From an uncultured virus (IMG/VR IMGVR_UViG_3300020050_007563) (taxonomy: Duplodnaviria > Heunggongvirae > Uroviricota > Caudoviricetes), in IMG/VR virus record IMGVR_UViG_3300020050_007563: 64,000 bases of DNA, one strand, 5' to 3'. Position 1 is the first letter of the stretch; the number at the start of each line of letters is the position of its first letter. Shown here in pieces: positions 1,318 to 40,098 of the stretch. The position numbers and the translations under genes were made by a program. The notes under the pieces were generated by a model. The model ran no database searches, was not told the DNA's origin, and saw nothing but the letters and a program-made list of their open reading frames with translations.

Positions 1318-1583
1318 GCACAACATTGATACACTTGATGAAGCTGGCAACTGCGAACGATGTGATGATTCAGTTCCAGCCAACACAGGACAAGACGCGC
1401 GGACACATCCGCATGTGGGATGCCGTGGAGAAAGATCCGGATAAGGTGCACAAGGTCGAACGGTCTTTCGACTATCGCGCCTTCAGCAACCTCGTTGCCG
1501 CAGACGAGATAAGCATGGATCAGATGATCCGCGCACTTCAGAACCTTGTCGAATCATGCAATCGAAAACTGATTGTTCCATGA
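1314..1583 (+). CDS. hypothetical protein
   Basis: Stop/start overlaps with both neighbours. Confidence 0.6.
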   Translation: MSTTLIHLMKLATANDVMIQFQPTQDKTRGHIRMWDAVEKDPDKVHKVERSFDYRAFSNLVAADEISMDQMIRALQNLVESCNRKLIVP

Positions 1584-1771
1584 TCACACCGAAGGACAAG
1601 GCACTGACCCCAGTAGAACAAGCGATCGAGAGGGCGATGGCTCGGATCGGATGCCCTCCGGGTGACAACTCCGATGCGGATCTATACCACGAACTTGCAG
1701 CCGCCCTAGCCTCCCTGAAGTCCATGGAGCCACGCAAGCCTGTAAACGAGGAGTGCGCTACCAAGCCATGA
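1580..1771 (+). CDS. hypothetical protein
   Basis: ATGA coupling with neighbours. Confidence 0.5.
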   Translation: MITPKDKALTPVEQAIERAMARIGCPPGDNSDADLYHELAAALASLKSMEPRKPVNEECATKP

Positions 1772-2001
1772 AGACAGAATCTCCAGCTCCAGCTCCTTTA
1801 GTGAGTGATGAGCAAATGAAGACCTATCGAATTTCGTGTACCCTATCTATCGAGGTCACGGTAGAAGCGGAATCTGAAGAAGCTGCGCTTGGGTGGCGTG
1901 TTACATCGGTAAGCACCAAGGACGACGACAATTTCAAGGCAGGCGTGTGCGACATAGAGATAGGCCGTCTTGATGTCGATGAAATAACCGAAGAAGCATG
2001 A
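1768..2001 (+). CDS. hypothetical protein
   Basis: MKTYRISCTLSIEVTVEAESEEAA is a common small phage protein pattern. Confidence 0.55.
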   Translation: MKTESPAPAPLVSDEQMKTYRISCTLSIEVTVEAESEEAALGWRVTSVSTKDDDNFKAGVCDIEIGRLDVDEITEEA

Positions 2002-2288
2002 AGCACATAAGCGATGCCGAGATAGTGGAATTGCGCAAGTCGCGCACCACGATAAGCATCACGCCAGAGTTCGCTTGGCAGGATGGCGCAATGGACCTAC
2101 GCGACCTTTACGAAGCCCACCTTTCCAAGATGAGAGCCGAGCGGGACGAGTTGGTGGAGAAGGCTAAGGAGGCCGAAGAATATCTGGTCATGGCTTTAGG
2201 GTCGGACGCCTTTGTGCGCACACCGGACCCCATTCAGCGATGGCTCCTGAAAGCCCGCGCCCTCCTCTCCAAGTACAAGACCGAGTGA
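1998..2288 (+). CDS. hypothetical protein
   Basis: ATGA coupling; 96 aa. Confidence 0.6.
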   Translation: MKHISDAEIVELRKSRTTISITPEFAWQDGAMDLRDLYEAHLSKMRAERDELVEKAKEAEEYLVMALGSDAFVRTPDPIQRWLLKARALLSKYKTE

Positions 2289-2297
2289 CTAAATTAG

Positions 2298-2420
2298 CGG
2301 AGGCGTTCTTTGTGATGGTGGGCACACTGTGGCGCGTGGCCCCAAGCCAGCCCGCCGGAAGTCCGCACTTCTTGGGTAGCAGCGGTAAACCGGCCCCACC
2401 AACACAAAGAACAGGCTCCG
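2298..2420 (+). ncRNA. putative structured RNA (long closing stem, multibranch interior) upstream of the HisRS-like gene
   Basis: GTTCTTTGTG-A-TGGTGGG (2305-2322) pairs with CCCACCA-A-CACAAAGAAC (2395-2412); inner stems CCCAAG/CTTGGG and GAAGT/ACTTC. Strand uncertain. Confidence 0.55.
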
Positions 2421-2477
2421 TGATCCGCAGGCCGTCGCAATCGGGCGGCGGCTTGCTCACCTCAAATCAACAGGAAC

Positions 2478-3110
2478 ATGGAATTGCGTATTGAACAACA
2501 GTCAAGGGGCGTTCGGATCATCACAGGACAAGAAGCCTATCGGCGTCGCTTGCATTTGTCTCGGATTGCCGAGGTGGCTCAAGCATATGGCTTCGAGGAG
2601 ATCATTCTTCCAACAATCGAACCGGCATCGCTTTACGTGGACAAGGCAGGTCCGGAAATTCTTGGCCAGATGTACACATTCCCCGACCGAAAGGGCCGCG
2701 AACTATGTCTGCGACCGGAGGGGACAGCAACCGTTCAGGCGGTAGCTCGTGAACACTGGAAAGGACAGGAGAAGCGCGTTTGGTATTTCGAGCGCTGCTA
2801 TCGATATGAGCGACCACAGGCAGGTCGATACCGCGAGTTCTTCCAGTTCGGAGTGGAGTGGCTGAACCCGTGTACCGATGCGCCGCGTGAAGTGCTGATT
2901 GAAATGGCTGGTCATATGCTCAAAGGAACCGATGCCGTGCTTTCCGAAGGCGTCAAGAGGGGCCTGAGCTACTATACCGGCGACGGCTTCGAGTTCGTTT
3001 GTGATAAGCTCGGTGCGCAGAAACAGGTGTGCGGGGGCGGTCCATATAATGGAGGCATTGGGTTCGCAATCGGGTTCGATAGGATGATGCTCGCATTGAA
3101 TGCCAGCTAA
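2478..3110 (+). CDS. minimal histidyl-tRNA synthetase-like protein (class II catalytic core only)
   Basis: Motif 1 region GFEEIILPTIE, LCLRPEGTA, motif 2 YRYERPQAGRYREFFQFGVE, HisA-like RGLSYYTG, motif 3 GFAIGFDR. 210 aa with no anticodon-binding domain. Confidence 0.88.
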   Translation: MELRIEQQSRGVRIITGQEAYRRRLHLSRIAEVAQAYGFEEIILPTIEPASLYVDKAGPEILGQMYTFPDRKGRELCLRPEGTATVQAVAREHWKGQEKRVWYFERCYRYERPQAGRYREFFQFGVEWLNPCTDAPREVLIEMAGHMLKGTDAVLSEGVKRGLSYYTGDGFEFVCDKLGAQKQVCGGGPYNGGIGFAIGFDRMMLALNAS

Positions 3111-3211
3111 CGTAGCATAAACGAAGATCTTCGCATATCGATCACCGATCCTTTCCAAATCAGACCCCGCCTAATGTGAAGCTAACCGCATGCGAAGCGT
3201 AGCCTTTGCAT

Positions 3212-3247
3212 TAAATGACGAAGCCCCGCACTATTGGCCGGGGCTTC
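3212..3247 (-). terminator. intrinsic terminator-like hairpin
   Basis: 9-bp stem GAAGCCCCG/CGGGGCTTC (3220-3247) followed by GTCATTT on the minus strand. Confidence 0.6.
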
Positions 3248-3466
3248 ACCGCTTTCGCGGGCTCGTTGGCCAGCCATTGCACTAAGCCTTTCGGCGACCG
3301 CTTGTAGCGGACCTTTATGCAAGGCAGACCTACGCTCGTTCGGTATGTTCGCGGGGCCCGTGCTGGTCTTTTCACGCTGCCCACCGATCAAGTCGATGGG
3401 TACCTAAGCCAACGGACCCGCTAAGGCCTTTGGCGCGAGGTGCGGCCCACGAACACAAAGAACTGG
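3212..3466 (-). ncRNA. putative ~255-nt stand-alone structured RNA
   Basis: On the minus strand: -7 box TATACTTGC at 3475-3467, closing stem with G-U pairs (3463-3446/3355-3338), two GAAA-tetraloop hairpins and a 3' terminator hairpin; no credible ORF. Confidence 0.7.
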
Positions 3467-3828
3467 GCAAGTATAGCAATCCTCCGCTACCTTCGCACCA
3501 TCCAAAACGGACGAGCTCCGAATCCTAATGACGCGCCGGGCAGCTAACTGTTCGGCGTTGTCATTTCAACGGATCAGGTTCCGAAGACCTTCCGGATTCC
3601 TTCCCGATCCACCCTCATCATATACCGCTGAGTAATCGACAGGGAGGAATGCCCAAGGATCTGCCTGAGTAGGTCAAGTGGTACTTTCTCACGCGCCGCC
3701 CAATGAGCGAACGTGTGCCGCGACCATTTCACCTAACCAGTACCTGAATGTAGGTATAGGTGGCTTTCTCTTCTTTTCTCTCCCGCGTCTCACCCCCCTT
3801 CGTCGGGATCGCCCTGGCCTTCGTGCGC

Positions 3829-3889
3829 TTAGAATGAATCTAAATAAGACCTCGATAGTAGGAAGAGGAAGAAATAATATTACATTTGC
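3829..3889 (+). promoter_or_regulatory. early promoter module copy 2
   Basis: TTAGAATGAATCTAAAT 3829-3845, ATAGTAGGAAGAGGAAGA from 3855, TACATTTGC 3881-3889. Confidence 0.8.
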
Positions 3890-3903
3890 CTCGAACAACA
3901 ACA

Positions 3904-4227
3904 ATGGCCATGTGGAAAGCCGGAATGAAGGTGGTATGCGTGGATGTCTCCTTTCCGACGCCAGTTATAGGCGTGGCGCCTCCATTGGTTAAAGGGAAGA
4001 CGTACACCATTGTTGGGAGCAGAGAGTGTCCACTATGCGCTAAGACGTGTGTGGACGTGGGCATCCCAGGTGGGGGAGGAATCGGAAGATGCCATTGTGG
4101 GCATCGAAGGATGCAGGAGGTGTGGTGGGTTAGTGCGTGGCGCTTCCGCCCCCTCCTCGGCCACGAACAGGAGCAGCTCGACAAGATCGAGGAAGAGGCT
4201 ATGTCTGAAGAACTCCTGTCTGCATGA
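3904..4227 (+). CDS. hypothetical Cys-containing protein
   Basis: GMKVVCVD...LVKGKTYTI...RFRPL phage pattern with CxxC/CxC; directly after the promoter. Confidence 0.65.
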   Translation: MAMWKAGMKVVCVDVSFPTPVIGVAPPLVKGKTYTIVGSRECPLCAKTCVDVGIPGGGGIGRCHCGHRRMQEVWWVSAWRFRPLLGHEQEQLDKIEEEAMSEELLSA

Positions 4228-4475
4228 AACTCACCGTCTCCGAAGGCATCATCATGAGGGGTCAAGAGGCTCTCGGGTATGCTATTGATACGAAGGCGGT
4301 CTGGCGAGAAGCTCTTCGGCGTGTCCGTGGCTTCGTGGACCGCCTGGGGGATCCGGATGTCCCTGATGACATGGGAGAGGCGGTACGGGACTACATGGAG
4401 GGGCTGACAGATGCGGAACTACAAGAGATAGTGGAGGATCACAAGTGGGAGATACTGGATGAGCTAATAGACTGA
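4224..4475 (+). CDS. hypothetical protein
   Basis: ATGA coupling. Confidence 0.6.
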   Translation: MKLTVSEGIIMRGQEALGYAIDTKAVWREALRRVRGFVDRLGDPDVPDDMGEAVRDYMEGLTDAELQEIVEDHKWEILDELID

Positions 4476-4478
4476 GCC

Positions 4479-4688
4479 ATGACCAACGACAAGAAGCTCT
4501 CCCTGCTGCACGCTCAACTCTCAGCAGCCATTGATGCCGGAGATGAGGTCTCCGTCCTCCAGATCAATCGTCAGATAGAAGAAGTGTTTGCTCTGGATAG
4601 AGAGGAAGTAGTAAGGTACATGCTCAGAAATAGAGTGGTTCTTTCTGAGCACCTATTTCAGACGTTGGGACGAGAGGGGGATTCTTGA
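4479..4688 (+). CDS. hypothetical protein
   Basis: Collinear 69-aa ORF. Confidence 0.55.
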   Translation: MTNDKKLSLLHAQLSAAIDAGDEVSVLQINRQIEEVFALDREEVVRYMLRNRVVLSEHLFQTLGREGDS

Positions 4689-4757
4689 CTTTTTGCTATG
4701 AGTCGGGCGCCTCCGTTGCCCTCCTCTGGCCCGCGATGAACTAAAAACCAAAACACC

Positions 4758-5678
4758 ATGAAAACGATAGTCATAAACACTCAGGCAGAGATGGATGCGC
4801 TTCCGCGTTCATTCGACGAACACACAGAGCTGCAAATACGTGGTAAAATCACGGAGGTTCGTCTCGCATATACAAACGCGGTCATAAGCGTCTGCGGCAG
4901 CGCCACCATCCAGTACGTCTACGGCAGCGCCACCATCCAGCGCGTCTGCGGCAGCGCCACCATCCAGTACGTCTGCGGCAATGCCACCATCCAGCGCGTC
5001 TACGGCAGCGCCACCATCCAGCACGTCTACGACAGCGCCACCATCCAGTACGTCTGCGGCAATGCCACCATCCAGCGCGTCTACGGCAGCGCCACCATCC
5101 AGCACGTCTACGCCAGCGCCACCATCCAGTACGTCTACGGCAGCGCCACCATCCAGCACGTCTGCGGCAATGCCACCATCCGAATAGAGTCTGGCACCAT
5201 TGACATAATGCTAGGCGCGGCAGTGGCGTTCGTTCTCGGAAAATGCACCATCAAGTCAAAGTCCAAAACAAACACGATCATCCAGAGGCCGGAGTCTGGT
5301 ACTGTTGATCTATGGATGATGAGCGAGGGTGTCGTTGCCGAACTCGGTTACGTAGTCCTATTCAAGAGGGTGTCGTCACAATATCAGACGCAAGAGAATA
5401 GTCTACGCGAAACAACGTGGACGCCCGGCACCACCCTTGAACACAGCTCATGGGATCCTCACAAAGAGGAGTGCGGAGCCGGAAAGTATCACGCCTGCTC
5501 GCTGCCTGTGTTCTGTGATGAGTTCCGGAGCACTTATGGGGACAAGTATGTGGCGATCAGGGTCAAAACGTCCGACATGCACGCATGGAAGGACCCGGCT
5601 TACCCGCATAAGATCGCCTTCAGAAAAGGGACTGTAATGTACGAGTGTGACCTCTCCGGAAAAGAGATCAAGCCATGA
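4758..5678 (+). CDS. tandem-repeat (beta-solenoid-like) phage protein with conserved C-terminal domain
   Basis: 11 x 9-aa repeats [YRHS]V[YC][GDA][SN]ATIQ; C-terminal VLFKRV...ECGAGKYHAC domain. Confidence 0.85.
   Translation: MKTIVINTQAEMDALPRSFDEHTELQIRGKITEVRLAYTNAVISVCGSATIQYVYGSATIQRVCGSATIQYVCGNATIQRVYGSATIQHVYDSATIQYVCGNATIQRVYGSATIQHVYASATIQYVYGSATIQHVCGNATIRIESGTIDIMLGAAVAFVLGKCTIKSKSKTNTIIQRPESGTVDLWMMSEGVVAELGYVVLFKRVSSQYQTQENSLRETTWTPGTTLEHSSWDPHKEECGAGKYHACSLPVFCDEFRSTYGDKYVAIRVKTSDMHAWKDPAYPHKIAFRKGTVMYECDLSGKEIKP
4887..5183 (+). repeat. 11 x 27-bp coding tandem repeat
   Basis: Unit NNC-GTC-TRC-GNC-ARY-GCC-ACC-ATC-CAG; 297 bp; includes a duplicated 81-bp higher-order block. 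Confidence 0.95.
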
Positions 5679-21810: not shown

Positions 21811-21954
21811 GTTCGTTGACATAGTGATCTCGTAGCTCAGGGTAGAGCACCGATCGGTATACGTAATGCGCCCCGACTATCGAATGGAGGGAAGCGGTGG
21901 ATACGTTCGGAGGTCGCGGCTTCAATGCCGCCGAGGTCACTATGTCAATCGAAC
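21811..21954 (+). ncRNA. tRNA-like RNA 2 with a 53-nt anticodon-arm insert and extended acceptor helix
   Basis: GATCTCG-TA-GCTC-AGGGTA-GAGC-A-CCGA-[53 nt]-TCGG-AGGTC-GCGGC-TTCAAT-GCCGC-CGAGGTC-ACTA; the flanks extend the helix to 17 bp plus GTTCG/CGAAC. Confidence 0.75.
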
Positions 21955-22049
21955 AACGGCCCAAGTTATAGACAGGGCCTACCTAAAACATCAAAGACGG
22001 CATTAGGGATCCAATCTTGGATCGCCCTTGGTCACACATTTTTACAGCA

Positions 22050-22083
22050 TATGCTTAGCGCTAAGCATAAACCTCTATCTTTG
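22050..22083 (+). promoter_or_regulatory. 20-bp perfect palindrome + -7 box upstream of the transposase
   Basis: TATGCTTAGCGCTAAGCATA 22050-22069; TATCTTTG 22076-22083. Confidence 0.75.
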
Positions 22084-22104
22084 ACCCATCAAGACGCAGA
22101 AGCC

Positions 22105-22941
22105 ATGAACCGCCTCCCCCTCGAAAAGCAAGTCCAGATCATCAACATGCTCGTTGAGGGTAGCAGCCTGCGTAGCACATCCCGCGTGTGCGATGTGTCC
22201 ATCAACACGGTGACAAAGCTTCTGGTGGACGTGGGCCGCGCATGTGAGAAGTTCCACGATGAAACGGTGAAAGGGCTTGAGGTGAAGCGCTTACAGGCCG
22301 ATGAAATCTGGAGCTTCATCTATGCCAAGCAGAAGAACGTTCCCGAAGGCATGGAAGACGCAGCCGGTGACGTGTGGACATGGACGGCTTTGGACAGCGA
22401 TACCAAGCTCATGGTTTCGTGGTACGTAGGTAGCCGCGATGCGCAGGCCGCTTATGAGTTCCTGTCCGATGTGCGCAGCCGCGTTGTTACCCGCATGCAG
22501 CTTACCAGCGACGGACATAGTGCATACGTGCCTGCCGTGGATGCCGTGTTTGGTCAGCACATCGACTACGCTCAGCTTATTAAAATCTACGGCGCTCCAG
22601 TTGGTGCTGGTAACGAACGTCGTTACAGTCCCGCAGAATGCACAGGAACCCGCACCGTAGCTGTTACGGGCCGTCCGAACCATGAGCACGTATCGACATC
22701 GCACGTTGAGCGCCAGAACCTGACCATGCGGATGAGCATGCGCCGGTTCACGCGCCTTACCAATGCCTTCAGCAAGAAGATCGAGAACCACTGCTACGCC
22801 ATCGCCCTCCACTTCGTCCACTACAACTTCTGCCGTATCCACAAGAGCCTGCGCGTTACCCCTGCCATGGAAGCCGGGCTGACCGACAATCTGATGAGCA
22901 TCGCCGACATCGTGAAACTAGCCTACCCCAATTCAAAGTGA
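22105..22941 (+). CDS. IS1-family DDE transposase (single ORF)
   Basis: N-terminal HTH ([19 protein letters not shown]); [26 protein letters not shown]...RFTR. Confidence 0.92.
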
Positions 22942-37719: not shown

Positions 37720-40098
37720 ATGTGGCCGAATACGAACCTGAACTGGCCTTGGCTGTTCAATACAAGTGCTACGCGACCATTCCGCACCATTCCGTGGGAG
37801 CAGAAGGGGGAGCTGTACGACAACCAATGCCTACGCTTCTACTTGTCGAGCGTCCGCCAGCCCCAGCGGGAGTTCTACCTCAGTGAGTACGCGCAGAACC
37901 TCTCTTACGTCTCCAACGACGTATCCTCGTGGGGTAGTGCTGCTCAGATCCGCGAGTTTATCGGAGACGAGAACATGCCCACGGGTCGCCTTCCGTGGCG
38001 TAGGGCTGTCATGCAGCCGATGCACACCCGTCTCGTGGGGGCTGCCGACAACATCAGCGTATCAGCCAAGGCTGTCTCATGGACCTCTAATGTGGCTGTC
38101 CGGAAAGAGACCGCCCTTTACGATAGGCTCCTGAAGACCCAGGCCGCAGCCATGGGCGGACCTCTCGCGGAGGCGATGGCGGCTCAAGGCGTTGGGATGG
38201 ATGAGGACGCGGAGCGGGATCGCTTCGAGAACCTCTGGACAGATCCCTACGAGCGGGCGATGACCAACTTGGTCCTCGCTATGGGAGAGCACCAGAAGCT
38301 CGCTCGGATGCAACGCAAGGCCGCAAGCAATCTAGCCCTCTCGGGCGTGTGTGCGGTCCACCAATTCGCCAACGGCAACAACATCGAGGCTGAACTCTGC
38401 GAGCCCCACGAGGTGGGCTGGGATACGGACGCCATCCGACCAGACTTCTCCGATGGCGAATACTGCTACCACATGCGTCCGATGGATGTAGCGGCTCTCG
38501 CCGAGCAGTACCAGCCATCGAAGGACACCCTGATCCTGCTGGAGCAGTGGGCGAACATGCCCAACACGTCCGCTCCGGCAAATGCCTCATGGGGATGGCC
38601 GATGCAGAAACCTCTGGTGGTGACGTGCTACTTCAAGGATATACGCACCATCGAGCGTGGGTTTGTCCTCAAGGACGGCGAGCCCCACTACTGCACGATC
38701 AACATCGCTGGTCCGGACGGGAAGGTCGAGTACACCGATGCGGACCTCATCGACCCTCCTATGAACCAGTGGACCTCCACTTGGACTAACATGGAGATCA
38801 AGATGCGCAAGCAGGTCAAAGAGGTTCAGCGCCTCCGGTACTGCTCCGTCATTCCATGGGAGTACATGCCCGCTTCACTGACGAAATACTCCGGCGTTAA
38901 GGGCCAGAAGATCGAGCCATTCAAGAGCCGTTCCGAGACCCTGAAACTGGACGTGAATGGCCAAAAGATCCTCCAGACGCTCTCTCCGACCGGGGACCTC
39001 ATCCTCGATAATGGGGAGTATGAACTCCAGGAGTACGATCCGGACGACAAGTACCATGTGGCTCTCCCTATCAAGTTCGGATCGTGGATGTACCTGAACG
39101 GCCTCCCCATCGCCCCCCTGTCCTGTATCCGGGACATCCAAGGGATGATGAACGCCGTGCTCAGTGACATGATGATGCGAATGAGTCGCGCCGAGATGCC
39201 AACGACCGTGTTCGATAACGACTCCCTCGTGGCGGCTGGTATCAGTTCGGATCAGGCGGTCAGAAACCTGAAGGTCGGACGCGCATTCGGGATCAAGTCG
39301 ATGCTCGTGGGTGGTGTCAACCAAGCTATCAAGACTACCGAGACGGGGTTAGGGGCGGACTTCTACCAGCGATTCACGATCATTGACCGCCTCTACCAGA
39401 TGGCGCAGGACGCCACGGGAATATACGACCAGAACTTCGGTGCTCCGGGCTCCGAGGATATGCTCGTGCGGGTCAAGGAGATGCAGAGCCGCCAGAGCGG
39501 TATCATGCTGACCCCGTTCTACGCGGCCCTTGGAGACCTCTTTGAGCAGGTCAACCAAGGGAATGCACAAGCCGGGAAGATCTTCTTCTCCTCGCGCCCA
39601 TGGGCTCTCAATCAGATGGTGGGAGACGAGGGTGAACGCATCATTCTTCTGAGCAAGGGAATGACGGACGAGCAGTTCCGTGTGAAGATCAAGCTCACTA
39701 CGGATACTGAGCAGCAACAGCGCGACGTGGAGACGGCCATCTTCCAGCAAGGCGGCTACTTGGATCGCGGGCTGTTGGATGCGCGTGAAGCAGCCAAGCT
39801 ACTCGCCTCCGGAGCCCTTATGGATGAGATGAAAGAAGGGGCCGCCCGCTTCACAAAGCGTATGCAAGAGGCTCAGAAGATGCAAGCCGAGCAGCAGCAG
39901 CAGGCCATGCAGGCACAGACCATGGCTGCCGCAGATGCCGAACTCTCAGAGCGCGAGATGGAGCTATCCAAGATGGGCGTGGATGCTGGATTGAAACAGC
40001 AGCAGATACAGGCAAAGGCAATGACCCCTGTGGTCTCGGCTCTCTCGAAGAATCTGGAACCAATGGAGAAGTCCGCAACGCTGGATGTAAACGTCTGA
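37720..40098 (+). CDS. portal protein
   Basis: 792 aa; position after terminase; Q-rich coiled C-terminus as in P22/crAss-type portals. Confidence 0.8.
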   Translation: MWPNTNLNWPWLFNTSATRPFRTIPWEQKGELYDNQCLRFYLSSVRQPQREFYLSEYAQNLSYVSNDVSSWGSAAQIREFIGDENMPTGRLPWRRAVMQPMHTRLVGAADNISVSAKAVSWTSNVAVRKETALYDRLLKTQAAAMGGPLAEAMAAQGVGMDEDAERDRFENLWTDPYERAMTNLVLAMGEHQKLARMQRKAASNLALSGVCAVHQFANGNNIEAELCEPHEVGWDTDAIRPDFSDGEYCYHMRPMDVAALAEQYQPSKDTLILLEQWANMPNTSAPANASWGWPMQKPLVVTCYFKDIRTIERGFVLKDGEPHYCTINIAGPDGKVEYTDADLIDPPMNQWTSTWTNMEIKMRKQVKEVQRLRYCSVIPWEYMPASLTKYSGVKGQKIEPFKSRSETLKLDVNGQKILQTLSPTGDLILDNGEYELQEYDPDDKYHVALPIKFGSWMYLNGLPIAPLSCIRDIQGMMNAVLSDMMMRMSRAEMPTTVFDNDSLVAAGISSDQAVRNLKVGRAFGIKSMLVGGVNQAIKTTETGLGADFYQRFTIIDRLYQMAQDATGIYDQNFGAPGSEDMLVRVKEMQSRQSGIMLTPFYAALGDLFEQVNQGNAQAGKIFFSSRPWALNQMVGDEGERIILLSKGMTDEQFRVKIKLTTDTEQQQRDVETAIFQQGGYLDRGLLDAREAAKLLASGALMDEMKEGAARFTKRMQEAQKMQAEQQQQAMQAQTMAAADAELSEREMELSKMGVDAGLKQQQIQAKAMTPVVSALSKNLEPMEKSATLDVNV

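Follow-up and report, generated by a model that had tools for sequence, protein, structure and literature searches.

The window, i.e. the whole stretch of DNA that was analysed, comprises 64,000 nucleotides of an uncultured phage genome of approximately 65 kb. Close to its left end the window encodes a short histidyl-tRNA synthetase (HisRS) like protein, here called mini-HisRS, in a variable cassette surrounded by repeats and mobile-element remnants. The features of the region are:

2297..2421, no strand assigned: phage-backbone element, a long imperfect palindrome whose interior is branched and whose arms (2297-2323 and 2394-2421) contain two inverted copies of a repeated motif
2427..2456, + strand: GC-rich hairpin of 12 bp, located after the palindrome and before the cassette; it belongs to the backbone stretch 2261-2470
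2471..3477, + strand: variable cassette consisting of an AGGA ribosome binding site (2473-2476), the mini-HisRS gene and a 367-nt non-coding tail; absent from two contigs of related phages
2478..3110, + strand: mini-HisRS gene (210 aa), a class II catalytic core that has neither insertion domain nor anticodon-binding domain
3220..3247, no strand assigned: terminator-like GC hairpin 110 nt past the stop codon, the source of a weak BSnc120 match
3398..3457, no strand assigned: 60-nt block also present in other metagenome contigs (X3 record 10, 20,954 nt; X5 record 15, 6,287 nt; X2 record 6)
3442..3466, + strand: CGGCCCACGAACACAAAGAACTGG, the third motif copy, which stands alone close to where the cassette ends on the right and has no significant local fold
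3574..3732, - strand: C-terminal fragment of a tyrosine integrase, approximately 52 aa (phrog_216, 3.4e-10; PF00589, 9.7e-08)
3762..3826, no strand assigned: 65-nt intergenic element, 91% identical in the sister phage record G001

The 210-aa ORF matches the Pfam family PF13393 (tRNA-synt_His) at 1.5e-21. It scores 160.1 bits (8e-47) with the TIGR00442 hisS model and 94.5 bits (6.3e-27) with the TIGR00443 HisZ model, under the cut-offs of 286.75 and 271.65, respectively; the hisS score is the higher one. In an alignment to Escherichia coli HisRS (1KMM), motif 2 is CYRYERPQAGRYREFFQFGVE, and LRPEGTA, the HisA loop RGLSYY and motif 3, GFAIGFDRM, are present. The first-pass annotation, made by a model from the letters and their translations, had stated that motifs 1-3 and the HisA loop are kept, and Pfam, TIGR00442 and the 1KMM alignment bear this out. 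HisB reads GGPYNG, and GGRYDG in E. coli; the Arg position is Pro and the Asp is Asn, and both positions vary across the family. The insertion domain is missing. Residues 130-153 of mini-HisRS stand opposite residues 134-251 of the E. coli enzyme, and the AlphaFold2 model has a single helix in this place. The chain ends 8 residues past the motif-3 Arg. A nearly absent insertion domain, the GGPYNG sequence and the end just past motif 3 had likewise been noted before, and all are seen in the alignment. The anticodon-binding domain is thus absent from mini-HisRS, and a Pfam scan did not find it in the 70 other ORFs of the window either. Judged by its sequence, the ORF is a genuine catalytic-core-only HisRS with an intact-looking active site.

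An alignment of 36 family members contains 59 invariant columns. In brief, R79, E81 and T83 (LRPEGT), R109, E111, R117, R119, Q123 and E127 (motif 2), R161, Y165 and Y166 (HisA), G186-G188 and Y190 (HisB) and R202 (motif 3) are all invariant. With the exception of R79, these residues also hold in seven members that are only 42% identical, chromosomal Paraburkholderia copies included. The catalytic decay typical of HisZ, from which the first-pass annotation had set the protein apart, is thus seen neither in the 36 members nor in the seven more distant ones.

In Thermus thermophilus HisRS, residues E114, R115, Q117, R120 and R122 touch G-1, G1 and C70-A76 (Tian et al. 2015, PMC4357726). The equivalents in mini-HisRS, found via the E. 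coli alignment, are E111, R112, Q114, R117 and R119, which are invariant or at least 90% conserved. The same paper describes the anticodon of tRNA-His as a weak contributor to recognition by HisRS, and minihelices as substrates of the enzyme; mutation of the contact residues in the insertion domain costs little (PMC4357726).

The AlphaFold2 model of mini-HisRS has a mean pLDDT of 91.9. Foldseek ranks E. coli HisRS 1KMM first, with a TM-score of 0.87-0.88 on the query and an E value of 9e-17. The comparison of predicted structure with HisRS that had been proposed for this protein thus gives the class II HisRS fold. A homodimer was predicted with an ipSAE of 0.86 (0.01 in the best-scoring of three controls), a pass that may come from the memory of the model because HisRS dimers have already been solved. 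Of proteins with known structures, 20 of 30 one-chain pairs and 1 of 23 single chains passed the mark used. At least 97% of the contacts agree between prediction runs, the pLDDT of the partner is at least 87, and the predicted interface uses motif 1, like that of HisRS. Based on the model, mini-HisRS is probably homodimeric.

The family search drew on candidates of 115-368 aa and, at a threshold of E<=0.001, gave more than 2000 relatives (2052 proteins). The length is 205-222 aa in 115 of the best 120 of these 2052 relatives. In 114 of the 116 proteins among the best 120 that have a recognisable motif 3, the chain ends 4-14 residues past this motif. In a tree, 51 of 53 short representatives grouped as a single clan with an SH-aLRT of 97, separate from 58 of the 60 full-length HisRS. 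The full-length HisRS nearest to mini-HisRS is approximately 50% identical, in the N-terminal half only. The closest protein relatives are P0001 (98%) and P0003 (92%), together with P0271. Eight longer members (258-353 aa) were tested for an extra Pfam family, and none was found above the cut-off. A more general pattern scan of genome contigs returned mainly full-length archaeal and bacterial HisRS, with short forms only at L061, L062, L063, L074 and L080. The possibility that the gene is a recent truncation of hisS, which the first-pass annotation had named as one that would refute its reading, is ruled out, since the family is large, of constant length and forms one clan. Comparison of the gene with L010 gives a dN/dS of 0.029 and comparison with L008 one of 0.043, dS being saturated; by this measure the gene is under strong purifying selection. 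The family is old and mostly phage-borne.

Current resources name the family differently or not at all. NCBI (PGAP) names bacterial members HisZ, 'ATP phosphoribosyltransferase regulatory subunit', and the ESM Atlas likewise labels members HisZ. Mini-HisRS matched no PHROG family, and no PADLOC family was found for it or for the LeuRS-like core encoded by G001 (see below). We did not find a paper describing the family. Under HisRS, the entries of a 2022 review of aminoacyl-tRNA synthetase (aaRS) paralogues consist of HisZ only (PMC9437257).

Distant relatives are mostly located on huge-phage contigs, where the gene lies inside tRNA arrays. De-duplication at 95% (nucleotide level) of the family loci that the search patterns found gave 37 locus clusters. 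Any tRNA is present in 31 of these clusters, and in 28 it lies within 300 nt of the gene; a tRNA-His lies within 350 nt in 16 clusters and directly flanks the gene in 11, counts that are not independent because related phages share synteny. The share of tRNA-His among the tRNAs of these loci is 23 of 244. G is found at -1 in 22 of 24 distinct flanking tRNA-His, several of which have abnormal bodies of 87-91 nt with long variable regions. The cultured Sinorhizobium phage Phosso has a family member beside its own tRNA-His, and the uncultured phages LR756502.1 and LR745206.1, both larger than 630 kb, each have a family member. ARAGORN found no tRNA gene in the 64-kb window, and the closest available relatives, loci L008-L011 (80% identical), have none. 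The link to tRNA therefore comes from the more distant members. Chromosomal Paraburkholderia members are found among ordinary metabolic genes in tRNA-free surroundings, with an NADP oxidoreductase-like gene and LysR regulators as neighbours. This setting leaves room for a non-translational role. No conserved protein neighbour of the family gene was seen in the loci compared.

Comparison with metagenome contigs recovered relatives of the phage that do not have the cassette. In two contigs from two studies, 243 other bases replace 2471-3477, whereas the backbone stretch 2261-2470 is retained. The cassette-less joint, 2470->3478, is found in X2 record 5 (2119 nt) and X5 record 12 (1549 nt), with 210 nt on the shorter side. 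The integrase fragment is inside the stretch common to the cassette-less contigs, and other contigs diverge from the window past 3726 by running on. In other contigs the 60-nt block at 3398-3457 lies next to an integrase gene that is longer, their relative orientation being the reverse of that in the window, and the likeness stops at 3457, inside the motif. Record G001 is 99% identical in the structural genes, and its variable region encodes a core-only LeuRS-like protein; the 65-nt element at 3762-3826 is the sole part of window positions 1-35037 that G001 has in common. A scan found no promoter-like sites in 1900-4300 and terminator-like sites at chance level. A blastn search with 2200-3900 against phage records gave no match. 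Among viral contigs, the neighbouring ORF at 1998-2285 had no relatives and the ORF at 3886-4224 had one weak partial relative. The variable region also harbors further families of intergenic repeats, D2-D4.

Based on these observations, we suggest, with a probability of roughly 60%, that mini-HisRS is a minimal, probably dimeric HisRS that reads the acceptor end of its tRNA and is carried in a phage accessory cassette. The enzyme would use ATP to activate histidine, which would then be loaded onto tRNA-His. The acceptor end alone (G-1:C73 and CCA) would be read through the motif-2 loop, with no contact to the anticodon. In this phage of approximately 65 kb, which has no tRNA gene in the window, the enzyme would act on the tRNA-His of the host. 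Here the gene is carried as an accessory cassette (2471-3477), and the early region around it is highly variable. The gene is flanked by two motif copies in the arms of the backbone palindrome and by a third in a mobile-element mosaic beside the integrase fragment. Some observations count against this reading. The insertion domain, with which the T. thermophilus enzyme clamps the acceptor stem (PMC4357726), is absent from mini-HisRS. The dipeptide of the G-1 pocket, G72-G73 in T. thermophilus, is K72-G73 in mini-HisRS and is not conserved in the family. HisB is altered as well, and its Arg position is variable in the family.

If the anticodon loop and the tRNA body are ignored, odd phage variants of tRNA-His could be loaded. 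It is conceivable, though rather doubtful, that mini-HisRS supplies the protein component of a charging system private to the phage, in which the acceptor end alone is read. Such a system might load tRNA-His variants that are poorly handled by the host HisRS or left uncut by anticodon nucleases of the host, or it might sustain His-tRNA when the host synthetase is shut down or poisoned. In this reading, the LeuRS-like core that G001 has in place of mini-HisRS would suggest that phages of this lineage exchange reduced synthetase cores for one another as counter-measures.

The main idea of the first-pass annotation was a histidyl-adenylate-forming ligase with an acceptor other than tRNA (a different RNA, a small molecule, or a protein such as a carrier protein), and such an enzyme can be likened to the truncated SerRS-like amino acid:carrier-protein ligases. 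We consider it unlikely. It would fit the missing anticodon-binding and insertion domains, the lack of tRNA genes in the window and at near relatives, and the Paraburkholderia members, whose neighbours are not translation genes; aaRS cores that have turned to other acceptors are listed in PMC9437257. However, the motif-2 contacts to the tRNA acceptor end are conserved, and distant members are located in tRNA arrays, often by tRNA-His, which makes a non-tRNA acceptor less likely. Nor did Pfam recognise a carrier-protein or biosynthetic gene among the 70 other ORFs of the window, and no conserved partner was seen beside the gene. The tRNA arrays are also a different and more ordinary RNA association than the module of enzyme and dedicated RNAs that had been proposed.

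HisZ has a HisRS-like core and no anticodon-binding domain, as mini-HisRS. A HisZ-like protein or sensor would bind histidine, ATP or tRNA with no catalysis, and would regulate the ATP phosphoribosyltransferase or the stress response of the host, or poison the host HisRS via heterodimers. This is in line with the name given to bacterial members by NCBI, with the TIGR00443 match and with the predicted dimer interface via motif 1, which resembles that of HisRS. It is nevertheless improbable for mini-HisRS. Every catalytic Arg, Glu and Gln in HisA and in motifs 2 and 3 is invariant, which would be unexpected in a non-catalytic paralogue, and HisZ is described as having no adenylation activity (review PMC9437257). 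The hisS model scores above the HisZ model, solved HisZ chains are larger (344-400 aa), and Pfam recognised no HisG among the window ORFs scanned.

The shared motif beside the gene that the first-pass annotation had pointed out is real. With up to three mismatches allowed, the 18-nt motif CCCACSAACACAAAGAAC occurs three times in the 64 kb, at 2305-2322 (- strand), 2395-2412 (+ strand) and 3446-3463 (+ strand); 0.07 copies are expected by chance, and 0 of 100 shuffles had three. The motif had been taken as part of two related folded RNAs that bracket the gene, but a significant fold is seen for the 5' element only. Whichever strand is taken, the stretch 2297-2421 has a much stronger fold than shuffled sequence (z -4.96 and -4.30), and it may act as DNA or as an RNA of either strand. 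The 3' stretch 3420-3510 folds like chance (z -0.91, with 38 of 200 shuffles as good), with the motif in a loop. This copy lies 333 nt past the stop codon, amid mobile-element remnants beside the integrase fragment, and the two elements have only approximately 25 nt in common.

We did not find dedicated RNAs that travel with the gene, as had been supposed. The 12-nt core of the motif is present in 0 of the 56 family loci compared. Loci L008-L011 have coding DNA alone in common with the window, and L010, the one of these whose flanks were inspected, has a terminator hairpin where the window has the palindrome. The palindrome in turn is present in related phages that do not have the gene. The idea that the two elements are dedicated substrates, regulators or acceptor-stem mimics of the enzyme draws on the repetition of the motif, on a strongly folding 5' element in a place suited to an autoregulatory mimic, and on arms (ATG-GTGGGC / GCCCCAC-C) that faintly resemble the ends of phage tRNA-His (ATG-G-GTG... 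/ ...CAC-C), and is largely refuted by the comparative sequence data. The motif copies most likely mark DNA that is prone to recombination and are not cofactor RNAs.

Other identities for these elements were considered and rejected. Four exact matches of the motif in public viral contigs all lie in unrelated sequence. Rfam gave nothing at gathering score in the whole window, and the only match at E<=10 in 2000-4000, BSnc120, reached 25.7 bits where the gathering score is 114 and is a generic terminator-like hairpin. As a degenerate tRNA-His, the 5' palindrome has nothing beyond the faint acceptor-like likeness, and ARAGORN found no tRNA in it. Five small ORFs over the two non-coding elements matched no Pfam or PHROG family. 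Integron attC sites have a consensus orientation; the palindrome has GTT on the left and AAC on the right, the reverse of attC, as read from the bases alone.

Compared with the bacterial enzymes (E. coli 1KMM, 1KMN and 1HTT; T. thermophilus with tRNA, 4RDX), mini-HisRS has the fold, motifs 1-3, HisA, the motif-2 tRNA contacts and, as predicted here, the motif-1 dimer in common. It is approximately half the size and differs in having neither the insertion domain, approximately 118 residues in E. coli, nor the C-terminal anticodon-binding domain, nor the 11-residue loop between HisB and motif 3, and its HisB has the form GGxYxxG. Engineered HisRS fragments come closer in some respects. Li et al. 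(2011, PMC3060492) describe HisRS urzymes of 119-145 aa that activate histidine and cite the Ncat catalytic domain of HisRS (Augustine and Francklyn 1997), and engineered fragments are said to aminoacylate tRNA-His (PMC11602164). Like mini-HisRS, these fragments have no anticodon-binding domain, and the urzymes also have no insertion domain. However, they were made in the laboratory and have lost much of their activity, and HisA is absent from the urzymes, whereas mini-HisRS is natural and keeps HisA, HisB and motif 3.

Phage-borne aaRS genes among tRNA genes, as seen for the distant relatives, have been described for huge phages (Al-Shayeb et al. 2020, PMC7162821). The main text of that paper does not mention histidyl or truncated forms, which its Supplementary Table 6 may list. 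Unlike the huge phages, the window phage is small and has no tRNA gene in the window.

In T4-type phages, mobile regulatory cassettes consisting of promoter-stem-loop repeats flank shuffled genes in hyperplastic regions. The window is similar in that intergenic repeats or hairpins lie on both sides of an accessory gene, in an early region of high variability. It differs in that no promoter was recognised and in that there are three copies only, one of them by an integrase remnant.

Minimal urzymes have so far been built by hand by workers on the origin of aminoacyl-tRNA synthetases. If active, the natural HisRS cores of approximately 210 aa would provide a natural test, with more than 2000 members, of tRNA recognition by the acceptor stem only (the 'operational code'). 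They would also represent a compact translation accessory gene of phages that is missed or mislabelled by current resources. The member beside tRNA-His in phage Phosso makes genetics feasible.

The mini-HisRS gene encodes a histidyl-tRNA synthetase (HisRS) reduced to its catalytic core and sits among small plus-strand ORFs at the left end of the window. The annotated features of this region are:

2478-3110, plus strand: mini-HisRS gene, with an AGGA ribosome-binding site in front; product of 210 aa
3442-3466: third copy of an 18-nt motif, 333 nt past the stop codon, with the motif positioned in a loop
3574-3732, minus strand: integrase, present here only as a C-terminal fragment of about 52 aa

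The protein matches Pfam tRNA-synt_His at 1.5e-21 and scores 160.1 bits with the hisS model and 94.5 bits with the HisZ model, each under its own cut-off; it has no match among PHROG and PADLOC families. Aligned with E. coli HisRS it retains LRPEGTA, the entire motif-2 loop, HisA (RGLSYY) and motif 3 (GFAIGFDRM), whereas about 118 insertion-domain residues and the 11-residue loop preceding motif 3 are missing. HisB reads GGPYNG, and the chain ends 8 residues past the motif-3 arginine. AlphaFold2 models the chain with confidence (pLDDT 91.9), and superposition of the model on the E. coli HisRS catalytic domain gives a query-based TM-score of 0.87-0.88. Alignment and model bear out the first-pass description of the motifs, HisA, the altered HisB, the nearly absent insertion domain and the end after motif 3. 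A homodimer through motif 1 is predicted, with an ipSAE of 0.86 versus 0.01 for the best of three controls. Among solved structures, 20 of 30 one-chain pairs attain the mark, against 1 of 23 single chains. Contacts agree by at least 97% between runs and partner pLDDT is at least 87; HisRS dimers are already solved, so this is likeness rather than independent proof.

Among candidates of 115-368 aa, 2052 relatives came up in a word-indexed search. The length is 205-222 aa in 115 of the 120 best relatives, and the chain ends 4-14 residues past motif 3 in 114 of the 116 of these with a recognisable motif 3. An exhaustive profile-free search gave 84 representatives at E<=1e-30; its best 150 include 46 of 185-260 aa and 76 of 380-480 aa. 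The best full-length match is approximately 50% identical, over the N-terminal half only. A tree was built from 53 short forms (the window's, the 46 short representatives and 6 added near matches) and 60 full-length ones, the first of the 76. In this quick search, rooted at the midpoint only and with one long branch flagged, a branch with SH-aLRT 97 has 51 of the 53 short forms, the window's included, on the same side. Against relatives at 80% identity dN/dS is 0.03-0.04, with dS saturated. Across 36 members, chosen among the 120 best because their contigs are long, 59 columns do not vary, and every named catalytic residue is among them; these residues, R79 excepted, are also invariant in members only 42% identical, a subgroup (Phosso, Paraburkholderia) with LIPE(A/V)T in place of LRPEGT. 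The nearest ESM Atlas clusters are approximately 210 aa long, 89-98% viral, and automatically named HisZ or HisRS family. Given the number of relatives, their constant length, the single tree group and the low dN/dS, the gene is not a recent truncation of a full-length hisS. On sequence evidence mini-HisRS represents a family of minimal HisRS that is large and conserved, occurs mostly in phages and is misnamed by automatic annotation.

We consider the family of moderate interest. Our literature search, which covered few subscription-journal papers, found neither a paper describing it nor any description of a natural prokaryotic or phage HisRS without both the insertion and anticodon-binding domains. 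All matches for 'HisRS-like' concerned GCN2. The HisRS entry of a 2022 review of aaRS paralogues lists HisZ only (PMC9437257). By term search, a comparative analysis of jumbo phages mentions neither histidyl nor HisRS (PMC7824862), and a huge-phage paper treats aaRS genes in general, with 'histidyl' absent from its main text (PMC7162821). Engineered precedents are the HisRS urzymes and the Ncat domain (PMC3060492; PMC11602164).

In the HisRS-tRNA structure of T. thermophilus, the motif-2 residues E114, R115, Q117, R120 and R122 grip G-1, G1 and the 3' acceptor strand; the same source describes a weak anticodon contribution, minihelices as substrates, and little cost of mutating insertion-domain contact residues (PMC4357726). 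The window counterparts, placed via the E. coli alignment, are E111, R112, Q114, R117 and R119, each of them either invariant or conserved to at least 90%. The dipeptide of the cross-subunit G-1 pocket is Gly72-Gly73 in T. thermophilus and K72-G73 in mini-HisRS, and is variable across the family. The 55 loci taken from viral and metagenome contigs collapse to 37 clusters after de-duplication. A tRNA is present in 31 of these and within 300 nt of the gene in 28, and tRNA-His(GTG) lies within 350 nt in 16 and directly flanks the gene in 11; these counts are not independent, as related phages share gene order, and cover only loci caught by the search patterns. Of the 244 tRNAs at these loci, 23 are tRNA-His. 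G is found at -1 in 22 of 24 distinct flanking tRNA-His, and C73 in 5 of the 7 drawn. In the 469 kb phage Phosso, a tRNA-His lies 275 nt upstream of the family gene. No tRNA genes were found in the window or in its relatives at 80% identity (L008-L011), and chromosomal Paraburkholderia copies are surrounded by metabolic genes. As judged from these loci the family is tied to tRNA arrays, and mini-HisRS probably acts on tRNA-His, the genomic context agreeing with the motif-2 contact residues.

Some further features were observed. In 19 of 24 distinct phage tRNA-His genes of loci L001-L056, ATG stands exactly before base +1, giving G at -1, with the A at -3 and the T at -2 conserved as well. In the huge-phage tRNA arrays around mini-HisRS (e.g. 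L003:2898-2984, L017:525-615 and L024:3913-4001), some tRNAs whose type normally has a short arm are abnormally long. Among them are tRNA-His of 87-91 nt, which have a long variable region, and, at 84-96 nt, tRNA-Asn, Lys, Ile, Thr, Gln, Arg and Trp, often adjoining a normal-length copy of the same type. Approximately 500 nt 3' of mini-HisRS, the 80%-identity relatives carry an SpoU/TrmH-type RNA methyltransferase gene (L010:2385-2885, plus strand; PF00588, 6.1e-20), a possible further tRNA-directed accessory gene. In a Pseudomonas genome (L062:7125-8714, minus strand), a short HisRS-like gene and the gene for RtcR, which regulates the RtcBA RNA-repair operon, are about 1.6 kb apart.

The first-pass annotation had proposed the gene as part of a candidate enzyme-RNA module with two related structured RNAs at its flanks. 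The repeated motif is real (three copies versus 0.07 expected), as is the strong 5' fold. Two copies are the arms of a single long palindrome at 2297-2421, which folds equally well on both strands (z -4.96 and -4.30), like any DNA inverted repeat. Folding around the third copy does not exceed that of shuffled controls (z -0.91), and the 5' and 3' regions share approximately 25 nt and nothing more.

The comparative data decide, and the module does not stand. The motif's 12-nt core is absent from all 56 family loci examined, and DNA shared with the 80%-identity relatives is coding only; L010 is flanked by a terminator hairpin and by upstream sequence unlike the window's. Contigs of four metagenome runs were aligned, at 85% likeness, to window 1500-4700. 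Two of them (2119 and 1549 nt, each from a different study) match 2261-2470, a stretch comprising the palindrome and a GC hairpin, at 28 differences and 13 gaps; they carry 243 other bases after 2470 and match again from 3478 at approximately 97% identity. Since these contigs lack the gene, the gene and its 367-nt tail (2471-3477) form a cassette, and the palindrome belongs to the backbone and occurs without it. Further joints in contig sets X3 and X5 (2298 to 2402, 2323 to 2390, 2323 to 2415, 2279 to 2415 and 2279 to 2446), weak with short sides of 26-38 nt, suggest that the palindrome interior or the entire element varies between strains. The cassette tail is a mosaic: block 3238-3351 is found elsewhere with other flanks, and block 3398-3457 adjoins integrase stretch 3487-3726 in opposite relative orientation in contigs of 20,954 and 6,287 nt, whose likeness stops at 3457, within the motif, and which are unlike the window past 3726. 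We infer that, instead of being RNAs that serve mini-HisRS, the motif copies flag DNA prone to recombination within a hyperplastic region, perhaps a former integrase target.

The window is phage DNA of 54-60% GC, encoding a P22-like portal (37720-40095), an endolysin-like protein, a protein with crAss muzzle likeness, NinG/Rap, resolvase-like genes and a DNA methyltransferase. The nearest virus record found, G001 (38,340 nt), is 99% identical to 35038-64000 and shares with 1-35037 only a 65-nt element at 3762-3826. By this comparison, the left end varies strongly between phages that are otherwise nearly identical. A protein 98% identical to mini-HisRS is encoded on a 67,057-nt contig, which fits a phage genome of approximately 65-67 kb.

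The variable region of G001 encodes, at L141:5643-6968 (plus strand), a class I synthetase core of 441 aa that has the HIGH and KMSKS motifs. Its best match is bacterial LeuRS TIGR00396 (4.7e-114; 382 bits, under the cut-off of 548), in three stretches of the 843-position model, and it looks like a core-only LeuRS. No credible tRNA gene was found in G001. In the window, a 338-aa ORF at 21925-22941 (plus strand) has weak IS1/IS240-type DDE transposase likeness (PF03400, 5e-06, under the gathering score) and may be an insertion sequence inside the phage. Just 5' of small early ORFs lie an intergenic pair at 276-314 and 3855-3893 (39 nt, 82% identity) and further repeats at 401-451, 674-700 and 851-901 (27-51 nt, 73-96%), all resembling regulatory sequences that are repeated within the variable early region. 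ORF 4758-5678 contains eleven 27-nt tandem units (4835-5239) encoding the 9-residue repeat GSATIQ(Y/H/R)V(Y/C), with faint beta-solenoid likeness.
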